NCBI GenBank assembly: GCA_019090455.1
Contig: JAHRWA010000026.1
Location: 1,431 to 65,430, forward strand
Direction of reading: 5' to 3'
Source of the DNA: Pseudomonadales bacterium
Lineage (GTDB): Bacteria; Pseudomonadota; Gammaproteobacteria; Pseudomonadales; DC-out160
Length of the DNA stretch: 64,000 nt
In this document: piece by piece, positions 1-54,130 of the stretch
Position numbering within the stretch: the first letter of the stretch is position 1
How the letters are laid out: the number at the start of each line of letters is the position of its first letter
Notes under the pieces: model-generated
What the model was told of the DNA's origin: nothing
Database searches by the model: none
What the model saw: the letters and a program-made list of their open reading frames with translations, nothing else
Translations under genes and position numbers: made by a program

Positions 1-59
1 GGTAAATAGGGTGTGTCTAGTGTCGCAATAGTTTTTTGGGTTGTTAAGCTGATTTCTCT

Positions 60-373
60 GCTTCGGTTTACATTCACGAGGGTTAAGTATGAGGGTGCTA
101 AAGAGTGATGCCAAGCCATAAAAAATTATAGCATGATATTTTGAAACAGGAGGCATGGTACATCATGCAGTAAAATATTCAGAGACGCCGATCCTTGATT
201 TGAGCCACTCCGCTTACAGTTCGGTCATCACATCAACAGCGACGTCAAAGAAAATAGAGAGTGGAAGGCGCGGTTTATTTTACTATGGCTAACCTTTATC
301 GGAATGTTAATAGGATGGTTTGATTGGCGGGGAGCGCGGGGGATAAACGCGGGTGCTCATCCGACTAGCCGTC
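60..373. repeat. Structured intergenic repeat, long form, copy R0 (left limit uncertain, may continue toward window start)
   Basis: By-eye alignment: 120-373 aligns with 2330-2583 and partly with 4040-4205. Shared strings are ttgagccactccgct, ggaaggcg.cggt.tattttactatggctaa and a terminal hairpin module at 331-360. It ends 5 nt from the stop codon of the minus-strand gene at 374. Confidence 0.6.
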
Positions 374-1060
374 TTAATACAAATCATTACTTAATTCGAG
401 TAAGTTTTTGTAGCAGCCCAAAGCATTTATATGCGTCGCGTTACCAACCAAGATACAATCAATACCCGCCGCCGATGCGCCGCCAAGGTCTCTGCGAATC
501 GAATCACCTATTACTAAACACCTTTCCCTGCTTATATTAAGCTGCTTCATTACAAGCTCGAATGGCTTTGGGGATGGCTTTACCATTCCATGGTCTGATG
601 AAAATGATGAGGCAGAAAATAACTTGTTGATATCTGACTCTTCAAATAAATTAAGCCATTGTTCTTTTGGTGCCCAGATGTCGATAACAACGGCCAGTTG
701 ATATTTTTTACTTAGCCGATGGAGTACGTCGATATATTCGGAAGGAATATTTCCAATCTCATGCTGAGCAAAAGTGTCAACTAATTTTGATATTTCCTCT
801 TCAGGTAACGATTTATCTACGGCATTTCTAATAGTATCCTCTACAGTTGGAAAACTATGCCGATATTTTTCATCAGGGTATCGTTTATCTAAATAGGAAT
901 AAGCGGACCTTATGACACTATTCGCATCTTCTTTTGAAAGACGCCCACCAATCTTGTGATAGTACTTAGAGAAATCTTCATAAATACCAAAATTATCTTC
1001 ACCAAACATAAACGTACCATTCATGTCTAATAGCAATGCGGATTTATTTGAATACACCAA
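374..1060 (-). CDS. HAD-superfamily hydrolase (subfamily IA-like)
   Basis: Track ORF is 374..1159. HAD motif I variant LLLDMNGT and C-terminal LVIGDSIRRDLGGA are present. The first 33 codons of the track ORF lie on the intergenic repeat shared with 3335-3428. A TTG (1060) or GTG (1057) start preceded by AAAGGA is therefore more likely. Confidence 0.75.
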   Translation of the reverse strand: MVYSNKSALLLDMNGTFMFGEDNFGIYEDFSKYYHKIGGRLSKEDANSVIRSAYSYLDKRYPDEKYRHSFPTVEDTIRNAVDKSLPEEEISKLVDTFAQHEIGNIPSEYIDVLHRLSKKYQLAVVIDIWAPKEQWLNLFEESDINKLFSASSFSSDHGMVKPSPKPFELVMKQLNISRERCLVIGDSIRRDLGGASAAGIDCILVGNATHINALGCYKNLLELSNDLY

Positions 1061-1127
1061 GTTTCCTTTGACAGCTAATGCCCGCACTGCGGGAAAATGG
1101 AGCGCAGCGGAAAAACAGTCCGACAAC

Positions 1128-1283
1128 ATGCGCTTGTGTACGCCCGGCACGGTCATCAACTAACGAGGTGAAAGTCCTCCGTGGGAAAATCACCGTTGAA
1201 CAGCGCGTTGTAAGTAAACGAGAACCTAAAGTGAAAGGCAAGGGCGGGGAGCGCCGGAGAGATACCGGTGCTTACCCGATTAT
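1128..1283. repeat. Structured intergenic repeat, short form, copy A
   Basis: 1128-1222 aligns with 3335-3428 (gcgcttgtg.ac.cccggcacgg.cat...gaggtgaa.gtcctc...gttgaa...gtaagtaaacga). Terminal hairpin is AGCGCCGG/CCGGTGCT at 1250-1272. The motif ccgatta (1277-1282) contains the stop codon of the cupin gene. Confidence 0.7.
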
Positions 1284-1603
1284 GCATTTTCGCCACCTTC
1301 AGGACCATAAAAGAATACCCAGGTAGAAAAGTCATTTGTGAAATCTTCAAATCGGTGAACAACTCCCGCAGGAACAAATAATACCTCTCCTGCTTCGAAT
1401 TTTTTTCGATTATTGCCATTAACAAAATAACCCGAGCCAGTTGCTACAACATAAATTTCATCTCTTGAATGCGGACTCTGTAGGTCGATTTTATTAGGCT
1501 TGTATATTTCTACGGACATAGAGCCATGACTGAATAACTCTTTAAATGGTTTATCCGAACTTTCAATTATTCCGAGTGCATTTGATATCGTGAGCCTACT
1601 CAT
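1280..1603 (-). CDS. Cupin-domain protein
   Basis: Track ORF is 1280..1666 with a TTG start. Cupin motif 1-like is HSRDEIYVVATGSG and motif 2-like is GEVLFVPAGVVHRF. An internal ATG at 1603 with upstream GGGA is the more plausible start. Confidence 0.7.
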   Translation of the reverse strand: MSRLTISNALGIIESSDKPFKELFSHGSMSVEIYKPNKIDLQSPHSRDEIYVVATGSGYFVNGNNRKKFEAGEVLFVPAGVVHRFEDFTNDFSTWVFFYGPEGGENA

Positions 1604-1683
1604 ATATTCCCTATTTGCATAACGCAGCCATAATTCCCCGATTGCAGCGTAGCGAAAAGCGATCAAATTGATTGATGGCCTTG

Positions 1684-2166
1684 TTAGCTGTGGATTTCAT
1701 CATAAACACTGAAGCCACGTGACTTATAGTTATTTAAACCATTGGCGTGATCTAGAGTGCAGGTGTGTACCCAGACCCTTTCTGTACTGGAATATGACCA
1801 TGCTGATTTAATGGCATGACTTAGCAAATAACCACCAAACCTTTTACCTATAAAATCTGGAATTAAACCAAAATAAGCTAGTTCTATATTTCCTGACTCT
1901 TGACTGTGAAGCTCGTAATATCCAGCAACACTACCTTGCACATATGCCACCCATGTACGCAGTGAGGAATCTTCGGCATACGCCCTCCAATCAGAATCAG
2001 GTAAATTAAGCTTATCAGTCCATCCCCATTTCTCGCCAACTGCTTCATAGAGAAACTTATTGAAACGGAAGTTTTTTATTTCGGCTTCTACTATATTAAT
2101 ACCCTCAAGGGAAGGCTTGGCTTTCAGCTCATCCTCAGATCTCATTTCAAGATAATACGTAATCAT
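1684..2166 (-). CDS. GNAT-family N-acetyltransferase
   Basis: 160-aa ORF. An acetyl-CoA-binding motif A-like segment IGKRFGGYLLSHAIKSAW follows the beta-strand LAYFGLIPDF. Size is typical of GNAT proteins. Confidence 0.75.
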   Translation of the reverse strand: MITYYLEMRSEDELKAKPSLEGINIVEAEIKNFRFNKFLYEAVGEKWGWTDKLNLPDSDWRAYAEDSSLRTWVAYVQGSVAGYYELHSQESGNIELAYFGLIPDFIGKRFGGYLLSHAIKSAWSYSSTERVWVHTCTLDHANGLNNYKSRGFSVYDEIHS

Positions 2167-2183
2167 AGTTTGAACCTGTGGAT

Positions 2184-2583
2184 AGCTAACAGTTGGATAC
2201 GCAGAAACTTAATTAACAAGCAATTGGTCTCATCACGGTGAGGGCTTAATAACACAATACTATTCAACCACCAAAATTAGAATCGCATATTTTGAATAGC
2301 TTTGCTATTGCGTATTTACGAGAATTTAGAACGAGAGGGATGGTACAAAACGCAATAGAGTTTTCCGAGAGACGGAGCCTTGGTTTGAGCCGCTCGGCTA
2401 CGTTCGTCGCACTACAATTCGGCAGTCGGCATTGGAATTGGAATTGTCGATCAGCGGGACCAAGGCAAATAATGAATGGAAGGCGACGGTGTATTTTACT
2501 ATGGCTAATCTTTATCAGGGCCTTGATAGAATGTTTTGGTCGGGTGGGAGCGCCGGAGAGGCGCTGGGGCTTACGCGATTAAT
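2184..2583. repeat. Structured intergenic repeat, long form, copy R1
   Basis: 2191-2340 aligns with 3896-4040 (ag.tggata..cagaaacttaattaaca ... agaatcgcatattttgaatagctt.gctattgcgtatt.acgagaatttaga). 2330-2583 aligns with 120-373. A perfect terminal hairpin AGCGCC/GGCGCT lies at 2549-2565. There is no convincing ORF. Confidence 0.7.
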
Positions 2584-2631
2584 TGCCTATTATAAGGGTG
2601 CGTTCTCATGATCATCTCGTGCATGGTCTTG

Positions 2632-3270
2632 TTACAAGGAGCTATAGCTCAGAGCCTTGCTAGATTGATTGAAATCTGTAATTTTCTGATGATGAATCGT
2701 GCCATCACCTACTAGAACAAAATTCCAACTTAAATCTGAACATGCCTTCTTATCCCATGATGCATCGCCAAAATAGGTGATATTTGATGGCCTTTCCGAA
2801 CCGGATTTACTCAACGATAGCTTCATTATATCTACTCGAGCCATTGCATCATTGGCTGAGCAGATTACGATACCGCCAAAATCAAAACCAGCAGACTGCA
2901 ACTTCATTAGGGCAGTCTCAGCCCAACCTCCTGTCGCAACTCCTAAACCAACTTCAGGTTTAAACTTAAGTAACTCAATGAATTTTCGTGCCCCTGGTAC
3001 TTCGGATACTGGATGTTCTTTTAGGTGAGAATAAGTATTTTCAATGAAGCTTTCTTTAATACGTTTAACTAGTTCATCTTTGTGCCTAGTTAAATTGTGC
3101 GACTCTATAATTTCATTAAGAATTCCTGAGTCTGTTACATGCCTATACTCACCCCAATCATCTTTAAAATCTACATCTGCATGGCTCAATATGGCTGCTT
3201 TGTAGCAAGCTGAATCAAAGTCTGTAGACTGGATTAATGTCCCATCAATATCAAATATAATGTATTGCAC
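2632..3270 (-). CDS. HAD-superfamily hydrolase
   Basis: Track ORF is 2632..3363. Canonical motif I is FDIDGTL, with GDASWD near the C-terminus. The first 31 codons overlie the repeat. An in-frame GTG at 3270 preceded by AAGGA gives MQYIIFDIDGT. Confidence 0.75.
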   Translation of the reverse strand: MQYIIFDIDGTLIQSTDFDSACYKAAILSHADVDFKDDWGEYRHVTDSGILNEIIESHNLTRHKDELVKRIKESFIENTYSHLKEHPVSEVPGARKFIELLKFKPEVGLGVATGGWAETALMKLQSAGFDFGGIVICSANDAMARVDIMKLSLSKSGSERPSNITYFGDASWDKKACSDLSWNFVLVGDGTIHHQKITDFNQSSKALSYSSL

Positions 3271-3334
3271 AATTTCATTTTTTCCTTGTAACGCTAGCTT
3301 CTGGCCTGGCGCTTTTTTTGCGCGTTCGTTAGCA

Positions 3335-3533
3335 GGCGCTTGTGCACCGCCCGGCACGGGCATTGACTAATGAGGTGAAGGTCCTCTGTAGGAAGGTTAC
3401 TGTTGAATTCCGTGCTGTAAGTAAACGATAACTACTAGCGAGTGGTAAGTGGGTGTGGTGTGAATGATATCAAAAGTATATTTTGGTGGTGTGGGGAGTG
3501 CCGGAGAGACATCGGTGCTTAGCCGATTAGAAT
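3335..3533. repeat. Structured intergenic repeat, short form, copy B
   Basis: Aligns with 1128-1283. Internal hairpin is at 3363-3406 and terminal hairpin AGTGCCG/CGGTGCT at 3497-3519. The motif ccgattag lies at 3523-3530, 8 nt from the stop of the gene at 3539. Confidence 0.7.
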
Positions 3534-3538
3534 AATAG

Positions 3539-3874
3539 TTATTCGAAAACATACAACAATCCCAACCCCGTCAATGCCATAAAATATCCAGATATTACCC
3601 AGAAACCATCCGTAAGCAAATAACCACCTGAGCCATTTCTGGGGGAAAGCCACCGAGCTGCTAACCCTGGCAACAGCAGAAACAACGCGCTAAGTATTGC
3701 TGGAATATAAACATACTGGGGAACCGGCGCTCTCAGTGAGGGATAAACGATGTTCCCTGTTTTAGAAATGACATCGACTGCCCTATTAAACCCCTGAAAA
3801 TAGTCAACCGCGCCAGTAAACACTAATACAAATAAAATACTTATAACGACGCCCAATGTTTTATGTATTATCAA
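3539..3874 (-). CDS. Small hydrophobic membrane protein (3-4 predicted TM segments), unknown function
   Basis: 111-aa ORF with a TTG start. Hydrophobic stretches are GVVISILFVLVFTGAV, IPAILSALFLLLPGLAA and VISGYFMALTGLGLLYV. I recognise no family. Confidence 0.5.
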   Translation of the reverse strand: MIIHKTLGVVISILFVLVFTGAVDYFQGFNRAVDVISKTGNIVYPSLRAPVPQYVYIPAILSALFLLLPGLAARWLSPRNGSGGYLLTDGFWVISGYFMALTGLGLLYVFE

Positions 3875-3888
3875 AGTCTAATTCCAAT

Positions 3889-4205
3889 TTCTAAGAGCTG
3901 GATATACAGAAACTTAATTAACATGCATTTTCTGCCATCAAGGTGAAGGCTTATAACGCAATGCTATTCAATCACCAAAATAAGAATCGCATATTTTGAA
4001 TAGCTTAGCTATTGCGTATTGACGAGAATTTAGAGCGGGAGGCAAGTCATAAAAAACAGTTGAATTTTCAGAGAAACGGTCCTTTGACTTGAGCCACTCC
4101 GCTATGTGTATCGCACTACAAATCGACAATGCTGGTAACATAACAACAATGATTAACCGCTTACGAGATACGCGCCGTGATTTACTCTACAGAACATTTC
4201 CTCCA
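3889..4205. repeat. Structured intergenic repeat, long form, copy R2 (lacks the terminal hairpin module)
   Basis: Aligns with 2184-2480 and with 170-300. The right end (acgcgccgtgatttactctacag) is a diverged version of ggcg.cggt.tattttactatgg. It runs into the RBS of the plus-strand gene at 4243. Confidence 0.65.
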
Positions 4206-4242
4206 GAAGTGATGCTGCCGAAAGGAAAATGGAACGAGCCTT

Positions 4243-4827
4243 ATGACAACTTACCGTCTCAATAATAATGTTTTTGAATATAGTTGCGCCTACGTGAACT
4301 ATCGTGCGTTGCGCAGGCAGTTCGAGAAGTTAAGTGTCGAGTTTTCTCAACACAATCAGTCGTTGATTGAAGCTCTTACTGCCGAGTGGGTGCCAGTGGG
4401 CGTAGAGTTTAAAACTGAGACGAAGAAAGCCACTATGCCAGATATATCTATTTGGAACATGTCTTGTTTGGTTGTTAATGAAAAGGCGAAAACGGAACTG
4501 GCACCAATTCTTGAAGAATTTGGTGAACTCCTTCCTCTAGAAAATAAGTTTTATTTGTTCAACTGTTTAACCTCATTGAGTGGAGATGTGGTTGACCCTG
4601 ATAAAACCAGTGTCTTACTGGAAAATATCGATTCGGCACATATTCCTAAAACACTGGAATTTTTGCCGAATAAAATTGTTGGCAAGTCGATTTTTAAACC
4701 CGGCTTTGCGCTCAATACTTTTTTAGTCTGTCAGGATGATTTTAAAAAGGCAGTGGAGAGTGCAAATTTAAATGGTCTTCTGTTCGATGAAAATCTGGCG
4801 CAGATGTTTCCGAGAAAATCTGATTAA
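4243..4827 (+). CDS. Imm11 (DUF1629)-like putative immunity protein
   Basis: 194 aa. The pattern PDISIWNMSCLVVNEKAKTELAPILEEFGELLPL...KFYLFNCL...DVVDPDKTSV...KSIFKP...FLVCQDDFKKAVESANLNGLLF matches my memory of the Imm11/DUF1629 layout. Assigned from memory of the family, not from a search. Confidence 0.45.
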   Translation: MTTYRLNNNVFEYSCAYVNYRALRRQFEKLSVEFSQHNQSLIEALTAEWVPVGVEFKTETKKATMPDISIWNMSCLVVNEKAKTELAPILEEFGELLPLENKFYLFNCLTSLSGDVVDPDKTSVLLENIDSAHIPKTLEFLPNKIVGKSIFKPGFALNTFLVCQDDFKKAVESANLNGLLFDENLAQMFPRKSD

Positions 4828-4892
4828 TAGGGTTTTCTCGAATGAAAAGCCTGAGAGGTTTACTCTTTCTGTACCCGACTGGGTTTAGGGTT

Positions 4893-4914
4893 GGTGGCGC
4901 TTACTCCGATTAAC
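4893..4914. repeat. Fragment of the terminal module of the intergenic repeat
   Basis: ggtggcgcttactccgattaac matches g.tgcttacccgatta of the other copies. It lies 1 nt from the stop codon of the small minus-strand ORF at 4915. Confidence 0.5.
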
Positions 4915-5076
4915 CTATTCTTGTTTGTCATCTGGTCTAACTAGGTTTTCAGGCGTTCCTAGAGTTGTTTCGTTTTTCAGCTCTTCCTCAACCTCTTTAG
5001 ATGCTGGCTTAAATAATTCTTTAGAATACTTCTCTGCTTTTTTCTTCGCTATTTCATAGCGCTCTTCGTCGTTCAT
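4915..5076 (-). CDS. Hypothetical 53-aa charged protein
   Basis: Not in the ORF track because it is under 60 aa. I translated it by hand: ATG at 5076 to TAG at 4915-4917, giving MNDEERYEIAKKKAEKYSKELFKPASKEVEEELKNETTLGTPENLVRPDDKQE. Its stop abuts a repeat fragment, as for the other cassette-like genes. Coding status is unproven. Confidence 0.35.
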   Translation of the reverse strand: MNDEERYEIAKKKAEKYSKELFKPASKEVEEELKNETTLGTPENLVRPDDKQE

Positions 5077-5164
5077 AGCTCTCGTACCAAATAGTGTGGA
5101 TTTCCTCTTTTAGTGGCTTATCCTTTGAAAGCTTGAACCGCTTCTCTATTTTCAATCTCACAAG

Positions 5165-6787
5165 TTAAGTTTGCGGCACAACCCGTTTCTGAATAGCTTC
5201 ATGTTCGAGCCAAACTTTGCGTAAGTAAATAACGGGGAGTAGAGCGACAAGGAAAACCACTGTTGACACGATAAAGGAATCTTTGAAGGCAACAGCAACA
5301 GCTTGAATATGCAGTGAGGTGGCCAAGTGTTGCAATGCGACGGCTTGGCCTTCTATCGCGGAGATTCCTGAACCCAATAATTGTTCTTGCAGTATCGCGA
5401 GGGTTTCCAGGGTGGTGGTGTTAGTGGGGTCCTGGGTTGAGTTGACGGTGCTGACATGAAATTGAGTACGCCGGTAGAGAACCACCGAGAGTATGTTGAC
5501 ACCAAACGCACCGCCCAGTTGTCGTATAAAGTTAATCACACCGGCCGCCTGCATCATAAAAGCTGGATCTACTGCGCGCACGGCGGAAATATTCATGGTT
5601 GGCATGGCGAGGCCTATGCCTATTCGACCTATGATCAGCCACCACGCAAAGCTCCAAAAGCTGGTGTTGGTATCTGCCTGAACCATCAAGGCAAATGAAA
5701 TTGCGAAAAATATTATGCCTAGCCCTATTAGATTATAGGGTGGGAATTTATCCACCATTCGCCCGACAAAAGGTGCGACTAATGCTAAAACGAATCCCGC
5801 TGGCATCATCGCTAAGCCGGCATCAATTGGCGACAGTCCCTGTATCACTTGTAAGAATAGAGGTATTAAAAAGGTAGAGCCAAACAGGCCGGCACCAAAG
5901 ACAAACGCGCTCAATGCGAGAATTGAAAAACGTTTGCTCATAAATATTTTTATATCGAGCAGCGGGCTGCTTTGACGTAGTTCCCAAAAAATAAAGCCGA
6001 TCATCGCCACCAGAGCTGTCATTAGCAAAGTGATAATATAAGTTGATCCCCAACCTTCTTTTTCACCATTACTGATTCCCACCAACAGTGCGACGATGGC
6101 GGTGCTTAATAAAATTAAACCGGTCCAATCAAAGGGGTTGTTGGGTTTCTCTCCGTCTCGTTCTGGCAAAAACACGATGGCCATGGGTAAAGAGATAATC
6201 ATGGGAGGAATGCCGAGATAGAAGACGTAACGCCAGTTGAATGTTTCTACCATGAGTCCGCCAATCGTTGGCCCCAATGCGGGTGCTAGCATTGTGCCGA
6301 TTGAGGTGATGCCCATGGCGAAGCCTTGGCGGTTTGCGGGGAATAATTGAAAAACTAACGAAATGCTGAGTGGAGTCACGAATCCCGCGCAAAGACCCTG
6401 GACGATACGGGCGAAGATCATGACTTCTAAGTTTGGGCTGAGGCCTCCGACGACGGATGCGAGAAAGAATGTGACAATGACGGCTGTGACTAATTTGCGT
6501 AAACCGAACTCTCCTTGTACCCAGGCAAACAATAACATTCCCACTGTTGAGGCAGCTAGGTTTGCAGTGGATAACCACTGGGCCTCGTCCTGACCAATGC
6601 CGAACGCGCCCATAATTTGCGGCAGTGCGACGTTGATAGACGTGGCGGTTAGAAAGGAGGTTAGCGTGATGAGCATCGCGGTGAACATGGCTATCCAGCC
6701 GTAGCGTTCACCGTGTTGGCGAAATAAGGCTTTAATAGTGTCAGTCGTATTGAGCGTTGCTATATAGGATTCCAGCCTATCGGACAT
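5165..6787 (-). CDS. MFS drug/H+ antiporter, DHA2 (EmrB/QacA-like, 14-TMS type)
   Basis: 540 aa and highly hydrophobic with about 14 segments. It overlaps the upstream HlyD-family gene by 11 nt, which is operon-like. Confidence 0.85.
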   Translation of the reverse strand: MSDRLESYIATLNTTDTIKALFRQHGERYGWIAMFTAMLITLTSFLTATSINVALPQIMGAFGIGQDEAQWLSTANLAASTVGMLLFAWVQGEFGLRKLVTAVIVTFFLASVVGGLSPNLEVMIFARIVQGLCAGFVTPLSISLVFQLFPANRQGFAMGITSIGTMLAPALGPTIGGLMVETFNWRYVFYLGIPPMIISLPMAIVFLPERDGEKPNNPFDWTGLILLSTAIVALLVGISNGEKEGWGSTYIITLLMTALVAMIGFIFWELRQSSPLLDIKIFMSKRFSILALSAFVFGAGLFGSTFLIPLFLQVIQGLSPIDAGLAMMPAGFVLALVAPFVGRMVDKFPPYNLIGLGIIFFAISFALMVQADTNTSFWSFAWWLIIGRIGIGLAMPTMNISAVRAVDPAFMMQAAGVINFIRQLGGAFGVNILSVVLYRRTQFHVSTVNSTQDPTNTTTLETLAILQEQLLGSGISAIEGQAVALQHLATSLHIQAVAVAFKDSFIVSTVVFLVALLPVIYLRKVWLEHEAIQKRVVPQT

Positions 6788-7970
6788 TAATGGCTACCCC
6801 AACCATCATGCCAGGCTTGAGTAAGTTATCCTGTTGTTGGATTGCAATTTTGATCGGTAACCGTTGGGTGACCTTGGTAAAATTTCCGCTAGGGTTAGTG
6901 CTGGGAAGGAGCGAGTAGAGGCTGGTAGCGGAGTCGCCGATCCGAATGATCTCGCCAGTGAATATTGTGTCGGGGTAGGCATCGACGCTGATCTCTACGG
7001 TTTGGCCTAATTTAATATGGCGGATTTGCGTTTCTTTAATGTTGGCGCTGACCCACACCTTAAGCGGATTGTGCATCAGTAATAGTCGTCTACCGGGCTG
7101 AATGAATTCACCGGTATCCACAAATATCTTGTCAACGATACCGTCGTGGGGTGCTCTAATGGTGAGGTCTTTAAATTCAACTTCTTGTTGTGCCAGTATT
7201 AGTGCAAGTGCTGCCCGCTGATGTTTCAATTTGAGTAGGCCGCTTTCTAATACTTTTAATTGGGTTTGATCGGCTTGGGCTTCAACCAGCTTGGCTTGTG
7301 TGGTTGCCACACCACTGGTTGCAGCTTGGTGACTTTGTTTCGCTTTTCGAAATTGTGTTTGAGCGGATTCCCAGCCTTGTTGTGAAATGATGTTTTTGTC
7401 TTTTAATAGTTGCGCACGTTTCCACTCATTGGAGCGAAACTCTAACTCTGATGCCATTGATAGCAATGTGGCTTGTGAAACGGATTTTTGAGATTTCGCT
7501 GACTCCAGAGCCCCGTCTGTTTGTTTTTCTACCATCTGCATCATGGCTTCCTGGGTTGCGTATTCTGCATCTACAGCCGCTAGGTTTTCTTGTAGTTCTT
7601 GTATTTTTAGCTGACGTTCTCGATCATCAATGGAGGCGATGATATCACCTGAGGAGAGGCTATCACCGGTGGAGACAGCGACGTCGACGAGCAAACCGGA
7701 GGAGGTACTGCTGATATCTATCATGTCTGCCGCGATACGGGCATCTTCCGTATAAACATGCGTGTAACGTTGCAGGATCCAATAAGCGCCGGCGATACAC
7801 AGGATGACAGCAAAAAGAGCAGCGATGCGCCTTTTAGACCCTTTGAGTTTCTGCGCAGCACCGTCATCGTTCTTGCCTGAATTTGGCTGAAGAGTTGCGT
7901 CGCCCTTACTGTCCGAATCGGTGCCGTTCTTGTCTGTGGTTGTCGCGGGATGTTGTGTGACTGTGCTCAT
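6777..7970 (-). CDS. HlyD-family membrane fusion protein (EmrA-like)
   Basis: N-terminal TM anchor, long coiled-coil middle, and C-terminal GNFTKVTQRLPIKIAI motif typical of EmrA-type adaptors. Confidence 0.85.
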   Translation of the reverse strand: MSTVTQHPATTTDKNGTDSDSKGDATLQPNSGKNDDGAAQKLKGSKRRIAALFAVILCIAGAYWILQRYTHVYTEDARIAADMIDISSTSSGLLVDVAVSTGDSLSSGDIIASIDDRERQLKIQELQENLAAVDAEYATQEAMMQMVEKQTDGALESAKSQKSVSQATLLSMASELEFRSNEWKRAQLLKDKNIISQQGWESAQTQFRKAKQSHQAATSGVATTQAKLVEAQADQTQLKVLESGLLKLKHQRAALALILAQQEVEFKDLTIRAPHDGIVDKIFVDTGEFIQPGRRLLLMHNPLKVWVSANIKETQIRHIKLGQTVEISVDAYPDTIFTGEIIRIGDSATSLYSLLPSTNPSGNFTKVTQRLPIKIAIQQQDNLLKPGMMVGVAINVR

Positions 7971-7979
7971 TAATACCTC

Positions 7980-9065
7980 TTATGATCTTTCCATTAGCGG
8001 TTTGCCTGGTAGCCGTTTTACTTCAGGCATGACTTCGCGGCAAAATAAACGCATGCTTTTTTCCACATCGGCATAGGGCATTCCGGCATAACTAAAGACG
8101 CCGTTGTAGGCACCCGCGCCCGTTCTTTCAGTGAAAAGTCGTATACGGTCGTAGCATTGTTCTGGAGTTCCCCAGACTTGAATGCTCATAAAGAAATCGA
8201 TCATGCCTTGAACGTCAGCATTGGCCATATCTTGCATGGCGACGTAGGATTCATAACCTTTGGTATCTTTGAAATGATTCCCCTGCATCTCATAGTGCTG
8301 GACTACTGTTAGGTAATAGCCACCAATATATTTCCGTGCCATTTCTTCTGCGCGTCCTGCATCTTCATCGCAAAAGGTCCAGCCTCCCAATATGGGTGCA
8401 GGAGCTTCTTCGGCGTGCACTTCTCGGTATATTGTTCGATAGTCGTTTAATTCTTTTTCAACGTGTTCCCACGGTTTTTGGGGAATAATGAGAATGCCGA
8501 CTCCTAATTCAGCCATGATTTTGGATGACTCGGGAGAGACTGCTGCAGCGTAGGTTCTGCCTTTGAAACTCTTGATTGGTGCTGGGCGAATATCGCGTGC
8601 TTCTTGTTTTATTAATCGGCCGTCAAATTCACAAACGCCTGTCTCGAGGCCTTGTAAGATCATTTGAGCTGATTCGGTGAAGTATTCACGGCTTTCATTC
8701 ATGTCACGTCGAAAGCCTTCAAATTCAACTCGACCTAGGCCACGACCGATACCTAAAATAAACCGACCATCTGACATGTTATCGAGTAGAGAAATTTCTT
8801 CCGCGACGCGCATGGGGTCGTGCCAAGGTAAGACAATGACCATGGAGCCTAATAATAGCTTTTCGCTTTTCGCCGCAAAATAAGTGAGATATTGCAGAAC
8901 ATCGGGGCACATTGTGTAGTCGGTAAAATGATGCTCAACTCCCCATATCGATTGAAAGCCCAGTTCCTCAGCCATTAGACCCAGACGTATTTCATTATCG
9001 TAGACGTACTTATCCGTCATTGACGGATCGGAGCCTTGAAATATCAGCGCTAGTCCTACATCCAT
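7980..9065 (-). CDS. LLM-class (luciferase-like) flavin-dependent oxidoreductase
   Basis: Track ORF is 7980..9098. An ATG at 9065 preceded by AGGAG gives MDVGLALIFQG. The sequence FQSIWGVEHHFTDY...VLPWHDP is typical of bacterial luciferase-like monooxygenases. Confidence 0.8.
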   Translation of the reverse strand: MDVGLALIFQGSDPSMTDKYVYDNEIRLGLMAEELGFQSIWGVEHHFTDYTMCPDVLQYLTYFAAKSEKLLLGSMVIVLPWHDPMRVAEEISLLDNMSDGRFILGIGRGLGRVEFEGFRRDMNESREYFTESAQMILQGLETGVCEFDGRLIKQEARDIRPAPIKSFKGRTYAAAVSPESSKIMAELGVGILIIPQKPWEHVEKELNDYRTIYREVHAEEAPAPILGGWTFCDEDAGRAEEMARKYIGGYYLTVVQHYEMQGNHFKDTKGYESYVAMQDMANADVQGMIDFFMSIQVWGTPEQCYDRIRLFTERTGAGAYNGVFSYAGMPYADVEKSMRLFCREVMPEVKRLPGKPLMERS

Positions 9066-10431: not shown

Positions 10432-12039
10432 ATGCACAAAACAATGATAAGACGTGTTGTTTTATTTTTTCTTGTTGTCGCTTCTGCTCAAAGTCATGGG
10501 CAATTATTTCAAAATCTACTAATTGGTAATGCGAAAGCATTGGCGCTGGGTCAAGCGGTCACTGCTGATCCGCCAGGAATTGATTCGATTCATTTTAATC
10601 CTGCAGGCTTGACCCGATTGAAGGGTCGCCAAGTTGAGATAAAAGTTCTTGCTGCCGATTTTTCTCTTATCGGTGAATTTGAACTGAATAATCCAGATAT
10701 CATTAAACGTTATGATGAGTTGGAAATAGTCGATCCCATTGCCGGTAGGGAAAGTGATGTGGATGGTTTGGCCGTTTACTTGCCGGGTGGTGGGTTTACC
10801 GAAGTGCCTATTCCCTTAGCGCCTTTGGGAGGTGTCTCTTTCAATCGTAAAGGATCGAAGTGGACTTTTGCCAATTCCGTTTATGCGCCGATGGCTTTTG
10901 GGTTATCTCGTGGTGATGATAACCCAGGTAAAGTCTATGGTCGGGCTCTTGCTCTCTCCCGTATCACCTTTTTCTCGCCTTCCTTTGGCTACCAAGTGAC
11001 AGAGAATTTTTCTGTCGGCATGACGGCGACATTTTCGTTTACCGGGTTTGCTGCAGATTTCGCATATCGAGCATCTGGCGGTGTTATTAGGGAATTAGCG
11101 GAATTGTTGAATCAAACTTGTGGCCGTACGGATAGAACCGGTTTTGTATTGGAGGTACCTTTTATTAATGCCTGTGGAGGAGAGCTCAGTGCGTTTGAAA
11201 GCCTCTTCGATTTTCGAGCGGATATGAAAAAAAATGTGTCAACGACTATCAATATTGGGCTGTTGTGGGATGCGACAGACTGGTTGACTTTGGGGATGGT
11301 TTATCAGACAGAAGCGGTTGATTATCTAAAAGGTACCGTAGATATACAAATTTATGAGGGCTTGCTTGGTTTGCTAAATGGGCTGGCTGAAAACGAACCC
11401 TTGAAAACCATACTCGTGGATGCCGCTCACATGCCTGAGGATGGGCATTTGGTAGAATCGGGATCCATAAAATTAGTCACGCCACAGCATCTATCCTTTG
11501 GGATGAGTATGCAGGTATTGCCTAAGTTAAAATTTAATGTCGATGTTAAGTGGACTGAAACGAGTGAGTGGGAGCAATTAGATTTTCAAACCGATCAAAA
11601 TGTGGGGCTTTTCGCTTTGTTCACGATACTGCAAGTTCATGGAGCGGAACCTGATCATTTAACGGTACCCAGAGGGTATGTGGATACGGTGAATTGGGGC
11701 TTCGGTCTTGAGTATCAATATGATGCTAAAACAGCGATACGATTTGGTTATGAGCCGCGTAAAACAGGTATACCTGACGATAAGAGAGACTTTACTGTTC
11801 CTCTTGCGGATCTTGATGTTTATGCGGTGGGCTTCAGTCGTAATTTAAGTAAAACAAGTTCCTTTGATCTCACCATTGCTACCACTAGCAGTGATATGTA
11901 CATCCCGTCAGGCTCGAGTACTAATGGAAATGATCATACCAATATTAATAACTTTATTTATCACCCGACATCAGGTTTGGATACACGGTCTAGTTTGAGT
12001 ATCTTTCTGGTTGAAACTAGTTATCGGAAACACTTTTAG
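10432..12039 (+). CDS. Outer-membrane transport protein, OmpP1/FadL/TodX family
   Basis: Signal peptide, N-terminal hatch-like ALALGQAVTADPPGIDSIHFNPAGL (NPAGL motif), beta-rich sequence and a terminal aromatic residue (F). Confidence 0.75.
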   Translation: MHKTMIRRVVLFFLVVASAQSHGQLFQNLLIGNAKALALGQAVTADPPGIDSIHFNPAGLTRLKGRQVEIKVLAADFSLIGEFELNNPDIIKRYDELEIVDPIAGRESDVDGLAVYLPGGGFTEVPIPLAPLGGVSFNRKGSKWTFANSVYAPMAFGLSRGDDNPGKVYGRALALSRITFFSPSFGYQVTENFSVGMTATFSFTGFAADFAYRASGGVIRELAELLNQTCGRTDRTGFVLEVPFINACGGELSAFESLFDFRADMKKNVSTTINIGLLWDATDWLTLGMVYQTEAVDYLKGTVDIQIYEGLLGLLNGLAENEPLKTILVDAAHMPEDGHLVESGSIKLVTPQHLSFGMSMQVLPKLKFNVDVKWTETSEWEQLDFQTDQNVGLFALFTILQVHGAEPDHLTVPRGYVDTVNWGFGLEYQYDAKTAIRFGYEPRKTGIPDDKRDFTVPLADLDVYAVGFSRNLSKTSSFDLTIATTSSDMYIPSGSSTNGNDHTNINNFIYHPTSGLDTRSSLSIFLVETSYRKHF

Positions 12040-12109
12040 TCCAATCCCTGTTGCGCTAAAAAGTTGATGGATCATTAATCTCTAATGATCCATCAAGATT
12101 GGAATAAAG

Positions 12110-13516
12110 TTACGCTCTTTTAACGTTGATAACTTGTATCTCAGTTGAACCCTCTACTCCCCAACGACCGTTAATGTAGCCAATGCCTGACCATTTAGAT
12201 CCGCCAAAGGGAACCATTGGATTCAACGCTAAATGCTGATTGACCCAAGCAGTACCACATTCTAGTTGTTGTGCGACTTCCGTTGCCTTATCAATATCGC
12301 CTGACCATACAGAACCACCTAAACCGTAATTCGTGTTGTTGGCACGAGTGATGGCTTCATCGGTATCTGAGAATGAAAGAATAGGCAGTACGGGACCGAA
12401 CTGTTCCTCCGCTACGATACGGGTGCTATCGTCTACATCCGTAATAATTGTATTGGCAAAGCAATATCCATTATCGCTAAGTTGATCGCCACCCGTCACA
12501 ATGGTTGCGCCATTGTTGCGGGCATCGTTCACCAACTCTCTGACGCGATCAAATTGAGGTTTGTTATTAATAGGCCCAAGACGATTACCCTCAACCATTC
12601 CGTCACCGACGGAGGTTTTGCTTGCCATTTCGGCCATGGCTTCGACTAAGTTGGAATAGACAGATTCATGAGCATAGACACGTTTGGCTGCGATACAGAC
12701 TTGGCCAGAATTGGTGAACGCGCCCCAAAAAAGGCTCTTGGCAACTTGTTTAACGTTAACGTCACTTAGCACGATAGCAGCATCATTACCGCCCAGCTCA
12801 AGGGTAATTCGCTTCAGGTCGGGTGCTGCGGCAGCGGCGACTTTTTTTCCGGTATTCACTGATCCCGTGAAATCTATTTTGCGGACTGATGGATGTGCCG
12901 TGAGATGAGAGCCTAGAGGATCACTACCTGAAATGATATTGAGTACGCCGGGTGGTAATGCAGATTGGACAGCTTCAGCGACTAGCAATGTGGAGAGTGG
13001 CGTAAACGGTGAAGGTTTGAGTATGACGGTATTCCCTGAAATGAGTGCTGTTGCTACTTTGCCCATCGCGATGGAGACAGGGAAATTCCAAGGTGTGATG
13101 GTGGCGACGACTCCGTAAGGTTTACGGTGCACTTCAAGTAAACCTTTGGGAGAATCTTGGACAACTTCAACGGGCATGGTTAGATTGGCAGACAATTGAA
13201 TTTGCATCACAGAGCCCATTATTTCCATCTTCGATTGGCTCAGGGGCTTGCCTTGTTCTAGTGTGAGGACTTCAGCAATTCTTTCGCTGTTCGCTTGAAT
13301 CGCGTTAGCCATCGCCATTAGGGCTTCTTTACGTTTAGCAATGTCGCTCTTCCATGCGGGAAATGCTTGCTCTGCAGCTTCTACCGCCTGATTGACTTGT
13401 TCTATACTACACTCTGGGGCTCGGGCAAAAACCTCTCCGTTAGCGGGATTGATGACAGGGAAACTGTCTTTCGTTCTAATCAAATCACCATTAATTAGTA
13501 AACTGTAATCACTCAT
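12110..13516 (-). CDS. NAD(P)-dependent aldehyde dehydrogenase
   Basis: ELGGNDA glutamate motif, catalytic-Cys segment FTNSGQVCIAAKR and EEQFGPVLP. Length is 468 aa. Confidence 0.9.
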   Translation of the reverse strand: MSDYSLLINGDLIRTKDSFPVINPANGEVFARAPECSIEQVNQAVEAAEQAFPAWKSDIAKRKEALMAMANAIQANSERIAEVLTLEQGKPLSQSKMEIMGSVMQIQLSANLTMPVEVVQDSPKGLLEVHRKPYGVVATITPWNFPVSIAMGKVATALISGNTVILKPSPFTPLSTLLVAEAVQSALPPGVLNIISGSDPLGSHLTAHPSVRKIDFTGSVNTGKKVAAAAAPDLKRITLELGGNDAAIVLSDVNVKQVAKSLFWGAFTNSGQVCIAAKRVYAHESVYSNLVEAMAEMASKTSVGDGMVEGNRLGPINNKPQFDRVRELVNDARNNGATIVTGGDQLSDNGYCFANTIITDVDDSTRIVAEEQFGPVLPILSFSDTDEAITRANNTNYGLGGSVWSGDIDKATEVAQQLECGTAWVNQHLALNPMVPFGGSKWSGIGYINGRWGVEGSTEIQVINVKRA

Positions 13517-13677
13517 TTTAAAATCTCCATTTTTTATTTAATATACAAGGATCAGCCGGAAACCAGTATAAACAGAGCTTTCAGGGATTGATACGAAACA
13601 TTAAAGTGATGCATCTGAAAAGTTAGACAGGCCAAAAGTGTGCTACTAATATACTGATAAGAGATAGGCATGATCAT

Positions 13678-13729
13678 AGTTAAAGTGATAGTTAAAGTGA
13701 TAGCTAAAGCTAAAGTGATAGTTAAAAAT
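13678..13729. repeat. Tandem 12-bp repeat AGTTAAAGTGAT (about 4.5 units, two degenerate)
   Basis: Units lie at 13678-13689, 13690-13701, 13702-13709 (truncated), 13710-13719 and 13720-13729. An isolated ttaaagtgat lies at 13601-13610. The tract is 25 nt upstream of the msrA start. Confidence 0.8.
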
Positions 13730-13754
13730 AAGAGTCAGTTTTTAATACGGGAAT

Positions 13755-14378
13755 ATGTTGATGGGAATTATCATCCGACAAGTACTTAGGTTTTTCTGTT
13801 CAATTGCACTATTGAATTTTTCAATGATGGCCTATGCCGATACTGCGGTATTAGCCGGGGGCTGTTTTTGGTGTATGGAATCTGATTTTGAAAAACTAGA
13901 AGGTGTGACTAACGTGGTGTCTGGTTTTACGGGAGGTACGTTAAAGAATCCGACTTACAATGGTAATCATAAGGGTCATTATGAAGCAGTTGAAATACAG
14001 TATGACCCTAGCAAGGTGACTTACAAAGAGCTGCTAAATCATTTCTGGATTAACATTGATCCCTTTGATGCAAAAGGCCAGTTTTGTGATAAAGGGTTCA
14101 GTTATCTCAGTGCCGTTTTTGTGGCTGACGAAAGGCAAAAGAAAATTGCGGAGCAGTCCCGAAAAGAGGTTGTTGGGATGTTTCCCAATAACAGCGTGGT
14201 TACACCCATTCTAGAAGCTTCCGTTTTTTATCCTATTGCGGGAAAAGAAAGTGGTCATCAGGATTATTATAAAAATAATCCTATTCGTTATAAAGCCTAT
14301 CGTTGGAACTGTGGCCGGGACAAACGCTTAAGGGAAATCTGGGGTGATGCGCCGAAAGCTAGGTTTAGTCTTAAGTAA
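13755..14378 (+). CDS. msrA: Peptide-methionine (S)-S-oxide reductase MsrA with N-terminal signal peptide
   Basis: GGCFWCMESDFEK active-site motif preceded by a hydrophobic leader ending in AYA. Confidence 0.9.
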   Translation: MLMGIIIRQVLRFFCSIALLNFSMMAYADTAVLAGGCFWCMESDFEKLEGVTNVVSGFTGGTLKNPTYNGNHKGHYEAVEIQYDPSKVTYKELLNHFWINIDPFDAKGQFCDKGFSYLSAVFVADERQKKIAEQSRKEVVGMFPNNSVVTPILEASVFYPIAGKESGHQDYYKNNPIRYKAYRWNCGRDKRLREIWGDAPKARFSLK

Positions 14379-14387
14379 TGTTTAGTC

Positions 14388-15263
14388 TTAGGTAATGTCA
14401 AAATGGGCAAAGTAGCAGCCGGCAACGGATTCTAGCCCATCGTTTCGATCTGCGAAATACTGTTCATATTGTTGTTCTGGAGACATGTTTTCTCTTAGGG
14501 TATATCCCAGTTCACAGACGTCTTTAATAAATTGTTCTGTCGTAAAATTATTGTCGATAAGCGGTTCGCCGGATAATTGTGTGTAAGCTTGTAGCAGCCT
14601 AATTTTGTATTTTTGACCTCTCATTATTTCATCGAAAGAGGTGGCGTAATCGAAAGTCAGCTCACTGGATTTGGCGGCAACTTGGACCAACGCATTGAGT
14701 GTCGAAAATATAGCTTCTTTGGACAAGTAAACGGTGACGCCTAGCCAGTAAAAAAAGGCAGGCTGACTTGAATCAAAACTGGATTTTTTCAGCGCAGAGG
14801 CAAGATCTTCTCGTTCTAGATCGGCGGCTACAAACTCTAGGTTAGGCGGGATTTCTATACCGGCTTTAGCCAGTTGTGCTTGTTTGAAACGTTGACTGCC
14901 AGGATGATCAATTTCGTAAACGGTAACAGAGTCTTTTAGCTCCGGATGGCTTAGGCAAAAACTGTCTAAGCCAGCACCGATGACGACTACCTGTTTCATT
15001 CCTCCTTTTATAGCAGCCAGTGCGCGATCTTCTGTGAATCGTGCTCTTGCTAACACTTGACCTTTGATGGGTGTCAATGGCCGCATTAGAGTGCCGAAGA
15101 CAATTTTATTTAAGACGGAATTGGTCACCGCTTTTTGCCAGGGGAGGGTGGATAAAGGCAGTGCAAAACGATCCGCAAAAACCACGGGAGTATCATCTTG
15201 AAGGTGTGATGCTCTGACTGCTGCAGCACCTTCTGCGGTACGACTGCGTTGAATTTGTTTCAT
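14388..15263 (-). CDS. Class I SAM-dependent methyltransferase (LCMT/TIGR00027-like)
   Basis: VVVIGAGLDSF SAM motif, YEIDHP and FYWLGVTVYL, typical of the O-methyltransferase family related to leucine carboxyl methyltransferases. Confidence 0.7.
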   Translation of the reverse strand: MKQIQRSRTAEGAAAVRASHLQDDTPVVFADRFALPLSTLPWQKAVTNSVLNKIVFGTLMRPLTPIKGQVLARARFTEDRALAAIKGGMKQVVVIGAGLDSFCLSHPELKDSVTVYEIDHPGSQRFKQAQLAKAGIEIPPNLEFVAADLEREDLASALKKSSFDSSQPAFFYWLGVTVYLSKEAIFSTLNALVQVAAKSSELTFDYATSFDEIMRGQKYKIRLLQAYTQLSGEPLIDNNFTTEQFIKDVCELGYTLRENMSPEQQYEQYFADRNDGLESVAGCYFAHFDIT

Positions 15264-15390
15264 GGTAGTGTGATTCCGTAAAGGCCGAGAATAAACTGAG
15301 TCATCTTCAGAGATAATAGATGAGGAGTTTTGGCGAACGTGGGCACGATGAAAGTGCCCACAGTATAAGCGATACTGGGTGTAAACTAGA

Positions 15391-16842
15391 TTAAGAATAA
15401 ACTATGTCAGATTTTTCTAACGAGCTATAACGCAGGCTCTTAATATCTGCTAGATAGTTTTGATTCATTTTCCAGGGTGCGGTAATGCCTTGCTTAGGAA
15501 AGATATCTTTTGCACGGCTAATGTATCCTGCCTTTAAATCAAAGAAGGGTAAGTCGCTGACGGGAACGCCATTATTATTCGGTATGCATTGCTTATGGTT
15601 ATTGTCGCTCATATGTTTGAGTAGCCGAGAAATATATTCACTGGCTAAATCTGCTTTCAGAGTCCAGGACGCATTGGTATAGCCCATCGCGAAGCCTAAA
15701 TTAGGAACGTCTTGTAGCATGACGCCTTTGTAAACCATTTTGTCAGCTAGATTTAGAGGGACGTCATCCAGTGTGAATTTGACATCGCCCAGGGGAACCA
15801 TGTTAAGGCCGGTTGCGGTAACAATAATGTCGGCATCCAGTTCTTTGCCAGATTTTAAGCGTATGCCTTTTTCTGTGAAGGTATCAATATGGTCGGTGAC
15901 AATGTCTGCCTTACCACTTTTTAAAGCTTTGAAAAAATCGCCATCAGGCGCGAGACACATTCTTTCGTCCCAGGGATTGTAGTCAGGGGTTAGGTGCGTA
16001 TCGATGTCATAGTCTGGACCTAATTCATAAGTAATGTATTTGTTGATTAATTTCTTCATGACTTTGGGTTGACGTTGACTCAATTGGAAAATAGAAATTG
16101 CTAAACACACGTTTTTCCATCGAGTAATGTCATAATTGAGCTTTTGCGGCAAAATTTTGCCCAGCGTATTTGAAATGACATCTTTTTCTGGGAAACCGAC
16201 GATATAGGTGGGTGATCGTTGTAGCATGGTGATGTGAGAGACTTTTTCTGCCATTGAAGGCACCAGCGTAACGGCAGTGGCACCACTGCCGATAACAACG
16301 ACTTTTTTGCCTGAATAATCCAGATCCGTTGGCCACAACTGGGGATGAATAACCTGCCCTTTGAATTTGTCTTGGCCGTCAAAGCTAGGCGTATAACCTT
16401 TATCGTATTTGTAGTAGCCACTGCAAAGATAGAGGAAGTTACAGGTGTAGAAAAGGGTTTCTTCCGATGGTCTTAATTGCACTTCCACTGTCCATTGTGA
16501 ATTCTCAGTGGACCATGCGGCTGATTTGACGAAACTTTGATATTTGATGTGTTGTTCAATATCAAAGTTCTTAGCGGTTTCTTTTATGTAGCTTAGGATT
16601 GAAGGTCCGTCAGCGATAGCCTTGGGGTTCTTCCAGGGGCTAAACGAAAAACCTAAGGTATGCATGTCAGAATCAGAGCGTATTCCAGGATATTGAAAAA
16701 GGTCCCAAGTTCCCCCCATGGATTCTCTGCCTTCTAAAATGGCAAAGGTCTTACTGGGATTTTCTTTTTGCATGAAGTATCCGGCGCCGATGCCAGATAT
16801 TCCTGCACCTACAATTAATAAATCAAAATGTTCTGTGGCCAT
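15391..16842 (-). CDS. Type I Baeyer-Villiger (flavin-containing) monooxygenase
   Basis: Two Rossmann motifs (GAGISG, GSGATA) and the BVMO fingerprint FxGxxxHxxxWP, present as FKGQVIHPQLWP. Confidence 0.85.
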   Translation of the reverse strand: MATEHFDLLIVGAGISGIGAGYFMQKENPSKTFAILEGRESMGGTWDLFQYPGIRSDSDMHTLGFSFSPWKNPKAIADGPSILSYIKETAKNFDIEQHIKYQSFVKSAAWSTENSQWTVEVQLRPSEETLFYTCNFLYLCSGYYKYDKGYTPSFDGQDKFKGQVIHPQLWPTDLDYSGKKVVVIGSGATAVTLVPSMAEKVSHITMLQRSPTYIVGFPEKDVISNTLGKILPQKLNYDITRWKNVCLAISIFQLSQRQPKVMKKLINKYITYELGPDYDIDTHLTPDYNPWDERMCLAPDGDFFKALKSGKADIVTDHIDTFTEKGIRLKSGKELDADIIVTATGLNMVPLGDVKFTLDDVPLNLADKMVYKGVMLQDVPNLGFAMGYTNASWTLKADLASEYISRLLKHMSDNNHKQCIPNNNGVPVSDLPFFDLKAGYISRAKDIFPKQGITAPWKMNQNYLADIKSLRYSSLEKSDIVYS

Positions 16843-16942: not shown

Positions 16943-17152
16943 TGCGTCTCAGTATTACTGGCGAGTGTTACTTGCGAATATTAGGTTGGTGTAGGCGTAG
17001 GTCGGATCATTCTTGGATGCTGATGAATCACCTGTATTGGGGGCAAACTCCATTAATAATCCGATCGCCTTCAATTTGATGGCTTACGATAATTCGCTTT
17101 TATCCTGTTTTACTCAAAGCATTTTAAATCTATACGTGTTTTAGATCTAGAC

Positions 17153-48240: not shown

Positions 48241-48306
48241 TTTCTCGGCCTAATCTCTAGTATCCTAATCGCTCTTACCCACTTTCGTTAAGAGTCGATT
48301 TTATTG

Positions 48307-54030: not shown

Positions 54031-54059
54031 GCGTAAAGTCGGGTGACCGAAAAAGAAAA

Positions 54060-54092
54060 CGCTCCCGTTATTGTTGTGAAATAACGGGAGCG
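54060..54092. terminator. Hairpin terminator between convergent genes (best on the minus strand)
   Basis: CGCTCCCGTTAT (54060-54071) pairs with ATAACGGGAGCG (54081-54092). On the minus strand it is followed by TTTTCTTTTTC. Confidence 0.7.
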
Positions 54093-54130
54093 AATAGGTG
54101 AGCTTTTGTTTTTAGATTTAGGTTCTAGAT

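Follow-up and report, generated by a model that had tools for sequence, protein, structure and literature searches.

The window analysed here is a 64,000-nucleotide (nt) stretch of a Pseudomonadales contig (JAHRWA010000026.1, positions 1,431 to 65,430), whose first 5.2 kb holds short genes separated by repeats that begin at stop codons. We conclude that positions 1-5164 are probably the larger part of an integron-type cassette array of ~6.5 kb that has no integrase nearby and has been colonised by group IIC-attC introns, now relics. The array is CALIN-like, a term that Cury et al. reportedly used in 2016 for a cluster of attC sites lacking an integron integrase. It is a tidy example of a known phenomenon, a degraded array with intron relics, and it represents no new cassette system. 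A preliminary description of this DNA had already proposed an integrase-less integron-type array, which is supported by an attC-model hit, by GTTRRRY-like core sites, by attC introns at TTGT/T (here and below a slash marks an insertion point or junction), by the absence of the block from a syntenic relative and by a related GNAT gene in another array. The same description had offered sites of 150-400 bp or a distinct cassette-like system; instead, the sites appear that long because intron relics and other foreign DNA sit between the R'' core and the rest of each attC site.

Repeat finding on positions 1-8000, with each copy also compared by BLAST to the whole window, recovered all of the blocks described previously (60-373, 1128-1283, 2184-2583, 3335-3533 and 3889-4205), and the fragment near 4893-4914 was recognised by eye. 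As had been stated, there is no copy elsewhere in the 64 kb: no BLAST match fell outside 60-4242, and a 16-nt motif search of the window gave no further convincing copy. The blocks had been taken for a single repeat family, but they are a mosaic of differing module combinations. A 37-nt core is present in four copies (331-367, 1246-1282, 2545-2581 and 3493-3529) and partly in a fragment at 4896-4910, and is missing altogether from the copy at 3889-4205. The short copies alone share a 102-nt module (D4; 1141-1242 and 3348-3449). Modules of 73 nt and 34 nt are common to 237-343 and 2452-2559, and a 239-nt block is common to 2186-2424 and 3891-4128, with 80 nt of it found again at 135-214.

Read in reverse complement, the shared core corresponds by homology to domain VI, at the 3' end of group IIC-attC introns. 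When 185,579 species, each represented by one genome, were scanned for exact matches to the core pattern, only two metagenome-assembled genomes gave a hit. In one of these (L009), the motif lies within an obvious attC array; on the other strand it forms the 3' terminus of a full group II intron that carries a reverse transcriptase (RT) gene. The Rfam D1-D4 and D5/D6 models match L009-L011, and the L009 RT used as a query led to plasmid-borne relatives. The class 1 integron of pASP-135 (L011) has the order intI1 - blaCARB-2 - aadA2 - intron - cmlA6 - catB11; its intron is antisense to the cassettes, with its 3' end abutting the aadA2 stop codon and R'' core (GTCTA/ATCGGG...) and the rest of the aadA2 attC site past its 5' end. 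A metagenome scan yielded 14 contigs with the core motif, every one preceded by ...TA/ (mostly ...YCTA/); the readable downstream sequence is intron D5/D6 in 12 of the 14, and two are 3' fragments. Metagenome contigs L021 and L025 carry the same intron lineage as bare ~45-nt 3' fragments after a ...CTA/ or ...ATA/ junction, so terminal relics are not unique to the present locus.

The insertion target of group IIC-attC introns is the attC bottom strand at R'' (consensus TTGT/T), and they run opposite to cassette transcription, in CALINs as elsewhere (PMC3001079, PMC7923331). The junction TTGT/GTACGCCC is conserved in a five-way alignment, and the relic junctions ...GCGCTTGT/GTACGCCC and ...CCCGAT/TA have the same form as those of L009, L010 and L011. 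The motif that seemed to start at the stop codon is the exon TA followed by the reverse complement of the intron's last bases (...CCCGAT). Its position had been given correctly for the cupin gene, whose TAA lies within it, and for the stop at 2632, which it follows by ~50 nt; the three other gaps are 2, 6 and 9 nt, not 1, 5 and 8.

Both intron termini are recognisable in the two short copies, which also contain candidate promoters:

1138-1280, plus strand: mini-intron B, 143 nt; intron positions 1-108 plus the last ~35 nt; flanks ...GCGCTTGT/ and /TATGC.
3344-3527, plus strand: mini-intron D, 184 nt; 5' ~105 nt, a 43-nt middle and the last ~45 nt (domain VI); flanks ...GCGCTTGT/ and /TAGAA.
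1213-1241, minus strand: P1out-like promoter in B, TTGCCT-17 nt-TTTACT, relic positions 76-104; directed at the HAD1 gene.
3420-3448, minus strand: P1out-like promoter in D, TTACCA-17 nt-TTTACT, relic positions 77-105; directed at the HAD2 gene.

The 5' part of B (window 1138-1245) is 78% identical to positions 1-108 of the L011 intron (BLAST E 3e-20), and that of D (window 3348-3449) is 83% identical to positions 4-105 (E 1e-23). In nhmmer searches, B gave E values of 8.9e-15 (5' part, profile of five full introns) and 2.7e-8 (3'-end profile), and D gave 1.7e-17 for its 5' part and 1.5e-5 for its 3' part (1e-7 with the 3'-end profile). The 3' end of B is 89% identical to that of the L009 intron. 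As judged from these alignments, B and D are internally deleted group IIC-attC introns, antisense to the cassettes and with both termini kept. Since the flank of B is /TATGC, the cupin stop codon TAA is made up of the exon TA and one intron base. Excising the relics in silico restores RYYYAAC-type cores, GCATA/AC for B and TTCTA/AC for D. The two are 80% identical to each other, no more than either is to the plasmid intron, and for this reason their insertions were probably old or independent. Terminal homology at both ends was found for B and D; in the other remnants (A, C, the sixth remnant, S, and 4896-4910, all listed below) only the last 15-37 nt match, and this match is weak alone (E 1.5-1.6, or alignment to B and D).

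Rfam reported no family in the window at the gathering threshold, and in positions 1-5300 it found no group II model, neither catalytic domain V nor ribozyme domains I-IV, even at E<=10. This silence is explained by the Rfam group II models, which omit intron positions 1-108 and a lone domain VI. A tblastn search with the L009 RT gave nothing better than E about 1, and no RVT or GIIM domain was found by Pfam in any plus-strand frame of the long units. To judge from what they retain, the elements are relics and not splicing-competent introns.

Leon et al. reported an outward promoter, P1out, either mapped or predicted and in most cases TTGCCA-17-TTTAAT at intron positions 76-104, and several versions were active (PMC3001079 Table 3). 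The L011 intron has exactly this sequence at 76-104. Homology to the intron reaches to about position 108 in relic B and to 105-106 in relic D, 1-4 nt past the -35 box (4 nt in B). The predicted relic promoters probably transcribe the downstream HAD cassettes in an array without the integron promoter Pc. Should they be active, the locus would offer a natural example in which intron remnants have taken over the expression of cassettes after the loss of the integron promoter, and it would extend the experimental P1out work on full-length introns.

The array itself was searched for attC sites with a home-made covariance model, R1, built from 12 attC sites of intron-bearing loci. On independent class 1 sites, its sensitivity was 4/6: aadA2 scored 62 bits, orfF 39, aacA4 36 and dfrA12 27 (26.9), while ereA and dfrA1 were missed. 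The attC sites concerned are as follows:

1617-1689, minus strand: intact attC of the GNAT cassette, AGCTAAC...GTTATGC, 73 nt; R'' overlaps the TAA stop.
3286-3343, minus strand: remainder of the cassette 2 attC (intron exon 1), ending in the R' core GTTACAA (3286-3292).
1073-1137, minus strand: remainder of the cassette 5 attC, ending in the R'-like core ATTAGCT (1073-1079).

The site at 1617-1689 was the sole R1 hit on both strands of 205 kb, comprising the window, the overlapping public contig (L001) and the locus of a relative (L026). It scored 25.2 bits (E 1e-3 over 205 kb, E 8e-5 within the array), with a weak thermodynamic fold. The GNAT-cupin gap had been described as the one gap without a repeat copy; the 128-aa cupin open reading frame (ORF) used there is over-extended, and the 107-aa version starts at 1603, with the attC at 1617-1689. 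With filters off in the array, R1 hits were confined to intergenic gaps. One, at L001 13454-13565 past the last cassette, scored 13.1 bits (E 0.09) on the opposite strand and reads ACATAAC...GTTAAAT in cassette orientation; another, at L001 12219-12278 before the glyoxalase gene, reads TGCTAAC...GTTAGCC and scored 9.2 bits on the cassette strand. The attC-model check suggested earlier, run here with R1, returned one significant site plus weaker ones.

Without its intron, the cassette 2 site reads TTCTAAC...GTTACAA (63 nt) and forms one imperfect hairpin with the R box paired (z = 0.1); the cassette 5 site reads GCATAAC...ATTAGCT (70 nt; fold z -1.8), with the R box unpaired in the minimum free energy structure. 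At their 5' ends, the intact site and the reconstructed ones have the consensus TAACAAG in common. Each of the eight cassettes opens with a GTTRRRY-like core ahead of its ORF or ORF pair, at a distance of about 15-25 nt from the ribosome-binding site; the cores are GTTACAA, GTTAGCT, GTTATGC, ATTAGCT, GTTAGCC, GTTATGT and CTTAGAA, and GTTAAAT is at the distal array end. The tetramer GTTA occurs within 40 nt upstream of six of the eight cassette starts, compared to 0.12 expected (P about 6e-5 to 5e-3). The observation that the long copies terminate at (G/C)TTAG, 21-24 nt ahead of the next start codon, stands.

The array comprises eight cassettes, each consisting of an ORF or ORF pair and then an attC site. 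Extending the contig leftward, as had been recommended, revealed further cassettes over 1.4 kb past window position 1 in L001 and no intI in the 8 kb beyond the window. On a public metagenome scaffold of 167 kb (ENA ERZ23500266 scaffold_26) the window lies in reverse orientation, and an EmrB of 100% identity is annotated at NCBI in a Pseudomonadales metagenome-assembled genome. From the emrB side, the genes are:

4915-5076, minus strand: cassette 1 ORF, 53 aa, the first ORF past emrB; in the ORF list and also gene-called in the public contig; no Pfam family match.
4243-4827, plus strand: Imm11-family gene (Pfam PF07791, E 2e-6), in the orientation opposite to the cassettes.
3539-3874, minus strand: cassette 2 ORF, 111 aa, membrane-like; no family match.
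2632-3270, minus strand: cassette 3 ORF, HAD hydrolase 2 (HAD2; Pfam HAD_2); GTG start at 3270 likely, from the sequence.
1684-2166, minus strand: cassette 4 ORF, GNAT acetyltransferase (Pfam).
1280-1603, minus strand: cassette 5 ORF, cupin, 107-aa version, as gene-called in L003-L006 (Pfam Cupin_2).
374-1060, minus strand: cassette 6 ORF, HAD hydrolase 1 (HAD1; Pfam); likely start TTG 1060 or GTG 1057.
L001, beyond the window: the remaining two cassettes, glyoxalase, then YjbR plus a second cupin (cupin2).

Just 88 nt separate emrB from the first cassette. Both HAD ORFs had been over-extended into the repeats, and their likely starts are 1060/1057 and 3270. The Imm11 gene has the 15-nt relic (4896-4910) on one flank and modules b+c on the other, and from the alignment layout it appears to be an insert interrupting the first long unit, the one after the 53-aa ORF. 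The two HAD cassettes (374-1159 and 2632-3363) share neighbour types, with a mini-intron upstream and an a-b long unit downstream, and their terminal bases are alike (TTGTATTAAGAC and TTGTAACAAGAC). Segmental duplication was rejected as the origin of these matching flanks because the HAD1 and HAD2 proteins are unrelated in sequence (BLASTP E 3.8); recombination between repeated flanks is possible.

The remaining repeat copies are 3'-end relics and long units:

4896-4910, plus strand: 3'-end relic, 15 nt; minus strand ATCGGAGTAAGCGCC, with the exon TA before it at 4911-4912; found by eye and too short for statistics.
3889-4242, minus strand: long unit E; unique part e, modules b and c; ends in the R'-like core CTTAGAA (3889-3895).
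2184-2583, minus strand: long unit C; domain VI relic (2545-2579), modules a, b and c; ends in the R' core GTTAGCT (2184-2190).
1-373, minus strand: long unit A; domain VI relic (331-365), module a, part of b and unique sequence; cut by the window end.
L001 12688-12705, after the glyoxalase gene: sixth remnant, 18 nt of intron end.

The intron-derived part of the long copies A and C and of the fragment 4896-4910 is only their first 15-37 nt. The core of C is 81-83% identical to B and D, with an nhmmer E value of only 1.6. Unit A continues in L001 to an attC-like site, followed by three genes in two cassettes. The alignments suggest three long units, located after the 53-aa ORF, after HAD2 and after HAD1. 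Module a occurs in A and C, b in A, C and E, and c in C and E: module a of C is 78% identical to 246-343, modules b+c of C are 81% identical to 3891-4128, and E is 81% identical to 2186-2424 over 239 nt. Unit E contains a 17-bp imperfect palindrome with a 6-nt one-sided bulge at ~3950-4020 (fold -11.9 kcal/mol, z -1.9), and no Pfam, RT or intron similarity was found in it. A ~100-nt stretch of the ~240-nt b-c segment is ~93% conserved. At the sixth remnant, L001 12686-12730 holds the 18-nt antisense intron 3' end and then a sense copy of its last ~13 nt (GCTTAAAGCCCGAT), forming a hairpin (-8.8 kcal/mol, z about -2); it may be what is left of introns joined head to head or may have arisen by foldback.

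Both strands of b-c were folded as RNA, with z about 0. A BLAST search with a long copy against plasmids and a scan of metagenomes with a module b pattern gave no match, and nhmmer profiles of a+b and b+c found nothing significant among all intron loci (best E 0.46, in the L010 RT region, judged to be noise). A 57-aa ORF in b-c was considered as a gene and rejected: substitutions are spread 16/14/11 over the codon positions, 24 codons differ non-synonymously vs. 7 synonymously, and it has no homologue. Its copies are similar as proteins, without a sign of purifying selection. Our best guess is that a-b-c are decayed ORF-less cassettes.

A more ambitious reading is that the mini-introns have been kept for their outward promoter, given breakpoints 1-4 nt past the -35 box in copies that are only 80% identical, thereby giving promoterless cassettes transcription of their own in an array from which Pc and intI have disappeared, and that the 240-nt b-c module, three times present, is a new non-coding cassette or regulatory element. 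We regard this as tentative and rather doubtful.

The array belongs to a strain-specific 11.7 kb island between emrB and aldh that also contains insertion sequence (IS) fragments, an AdeT-like gene and, by ORF reading, a broken YhfG/Fic pair. Relative L026, from a metagenome and with 87% EmrB identity, is syntenic on both sides and has 1.5 kb with two other genes at this place vs. 11.7 kb here. Gene-for-gene conservation in the same order across distant relatives had been named beforehand as evidence against a cassette array, and the block is not conserved in L026. The GNAT protein has a 66%-identical homologue in another attC array, on the unrelated metagenome contig L031. That array (L031 2400-7300) is integrase-less and adjoins cysS/glnS; it encodes GFA, metallo-beta-lactamase fold, methyltransferase, NUDIX and DAP-epimerase-like proteins and two GNATs, and in four of its intergenic gaps the attC model scores 11-39 bits on the coding strand.

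Some features of the island lie past the cassettes in L001. At 13535-16570, the array ends at what ORF reading shows as an IS30-type transposase C-terminal fragment. A block of ~300-490 nt, 96% identical between its copies at 13746-14240 and 15914-16400, stands on either side of an AdeT1_2-family gene and resembles, again by ORF reading, a Y1/IS200-like transposase C-terminus. At 16956-18012, a gene with a weak YhfG (PF10832) hit is followed by one with a weak Fic (PF02661) hit that appears to be split into two ORFs; together, at the island's far end, they probably represent a toxin-antitoxin pair in decay.

Several results weigh against an intron-colonised integron array. No IntI1 match was obtained by tblastn at E<=1 in the window, in L001 (8 kb beyond the window) or in L026, and the Rfam attI/AAC_AAD_leader family, which matched class 1 controls, gave no attI in the window. 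Only one attC site reaches significance, and R1 scored native sites, with the two reconstructed split sites outside its scoring. A plain scan for AAC...GTT hairpin energy recovered the control attC sites and showed no enrichment in the array over background; all array sites fold weakly as single-stranded DNA, though weak folding would not be surprising in AT-rich sites that decay where no integrase is present. All six public copies of the locus have identities of >=99.9% wherever they overlap (100% in five), so they give no direct view of cassettes being gained or lost. Modules a, b and c, which account for ~350 nt per long unit, match no intron, RT, Pfam family, plasmid or metagenome contig. 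Finally, the hexamers of the relic promoters are no better conserved than the remaining relic.

The hairpin scan also returned the strongest AAC...GTT hairpins of the window, at 12025-12115 and 54054-54114 (-0.20 to -0.21 kcal/mol per nt). Both are at the ends of long ORFs and are for that reason most likely intrinsic terminators; neither has an attC-model hit. The longest ORF of the window by far (1908 aa) occupies 48304-54030.

Among the alternatives, the one that survives best is that there is no integron array at all: group IIC introns would have targeted the terminators of small genes, and the attC-like hit would be a chance match. IIC-attC introns can target terminators (PMC7923331), and the weak, unenriched array hairpins and the single significant model hit fit this explanation. 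We nevertheless consider it improbable. It does not account for GTTRRRY cores ahead of every cassette or for the common TAACAAG consensus, and the model hits fall in intergenic gaps only, with 1617-1689 and 12219-12278 on the cassette strand and 13454-13565 on the opposite one. The genes are short, unrelated and in one orientation, in an island that is missing from the relative; the GNAT has its homologue in another attC array; and in being antisense and in direct contact with stop codons the introns match those of class 1 integrons exactly.

It is still less probable, and in our view very unlikely, that the locus represents a distinct cassette-like system, or genuinely long (150-400 bp) sites, in which the whole repeat is recognised by another recombinase. 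What speaks for such a system are the unexplained modules a, b and c, conserved at 78-81% between copies, with the ~93% conserved stretch of b-c and the imperfect palindrome with its one-sided bulge, and the failure to find a canonical integrase. On the other hand, the part that the copies share is an intron end strongly homologous to known attC introns, the copies are mosaics with differing module sets, and an ordinary 73-nt attC is present in the same array. Among the array ORFs, no gene for a recombinase of any type was recognised, and the b pattern is absent from the metagenome collection. Short structured repeats directly past stop codons could also recall a dispersed element placed behind genes genome-wide, of the repetitive extragenic palindrome (REP), bacterial interspersed mosaic element (BIME) or miniature inverted-repeat transposable element (MITE) type, an alternative raised previously to which we give almost no chance, as the other 59 kb of the window hold no copy and just 2 of 185,579 species genomes contain the core motif, which is followed by group II D5/D6 there and in the 12 of 14 metagenome contigs that could be read far enough downstream.

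Returning to a cassette array colonised by introns, we propose the following history. At most attC sites, group IIC-attC introns would have entered the R'' core (TTGT/T) by retrohoming into the folded bottom strand, each coming to lie antisense between the stop codon and the remaining attC; intron remnants are present at six of the eight sites. During decay, two introns may have lost everything from about position 108 to domain VI, and four others may have been reduced to 15-45 nt 3' ends, three of which became fused to sequence without a database match. Together, such relics would give the impression of a single repeat that begins at the stop codon. Since the split attC sites can no longer be expected to fold, the cassettes have probably become immobile. 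The locus shows how an array appears after heavy colonisation by attC-specific introns, and its apparent 150-400 bp sites are a trap for manual reading and for finders based on attC models. The model of cassette formation attributed to Leon & Roy is said to predict gene-intron-attC units as intermediates, and loci of this kind are useful for testing it because their gene-intron-attC arrays correspond to those intermediates.

The b-c segment may be compared to the ORF-less and promoter-bearing integron cassettes reviewed in PMC8876359. Like ORF-less cassettes, it is non-coding (with substitutions even over codon positions), lies between cassettes and ends at a GTTAG core; unlike either kind, it has no detected canonical attC, convincing promoter or homologue. 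The array as a whole resembles CALINs and sedentary chromosomal arrays in its unidirectional, short and unrelated ORFs (HAD, GNAT, cupin, glyoxalase and Imm11), its GTTRRRY cores, its mutually similar attC sites (TAACAAG...), the lack of an intI within reach and its position in a variable island. It differs from them in having one clearly recognisable attC, with most others split or decayed, and hairpins that are AT-rich and thermodynamically weak.

Group IIC-attC introns are rare in arrays, and truncated copies in CALINs have already been described (PMC3001079, PMC7923331). In contrast to full introns of this class, the window copies have no RT ORF or domain V and none is functional. The mini-intron form, of 143 or 184 nt with both termini and just the outward promoter, was not found described in either paper. 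Otherwise the relics conform to the class: they are antisense to the cassettes, they split the attC site at TTGT/T, separating the stop codon/R'' from what remains of it, and the 5' 105 nt of the mini-introns are 78-83% identical to a class 1 integron intron, with a P1out-like promoter at 76-104. What sets this locus apart from the literature, where such introns are rare in arrays, is that their remnants occupy six of eight junctions, two of them as internal-deletion mini-introns.

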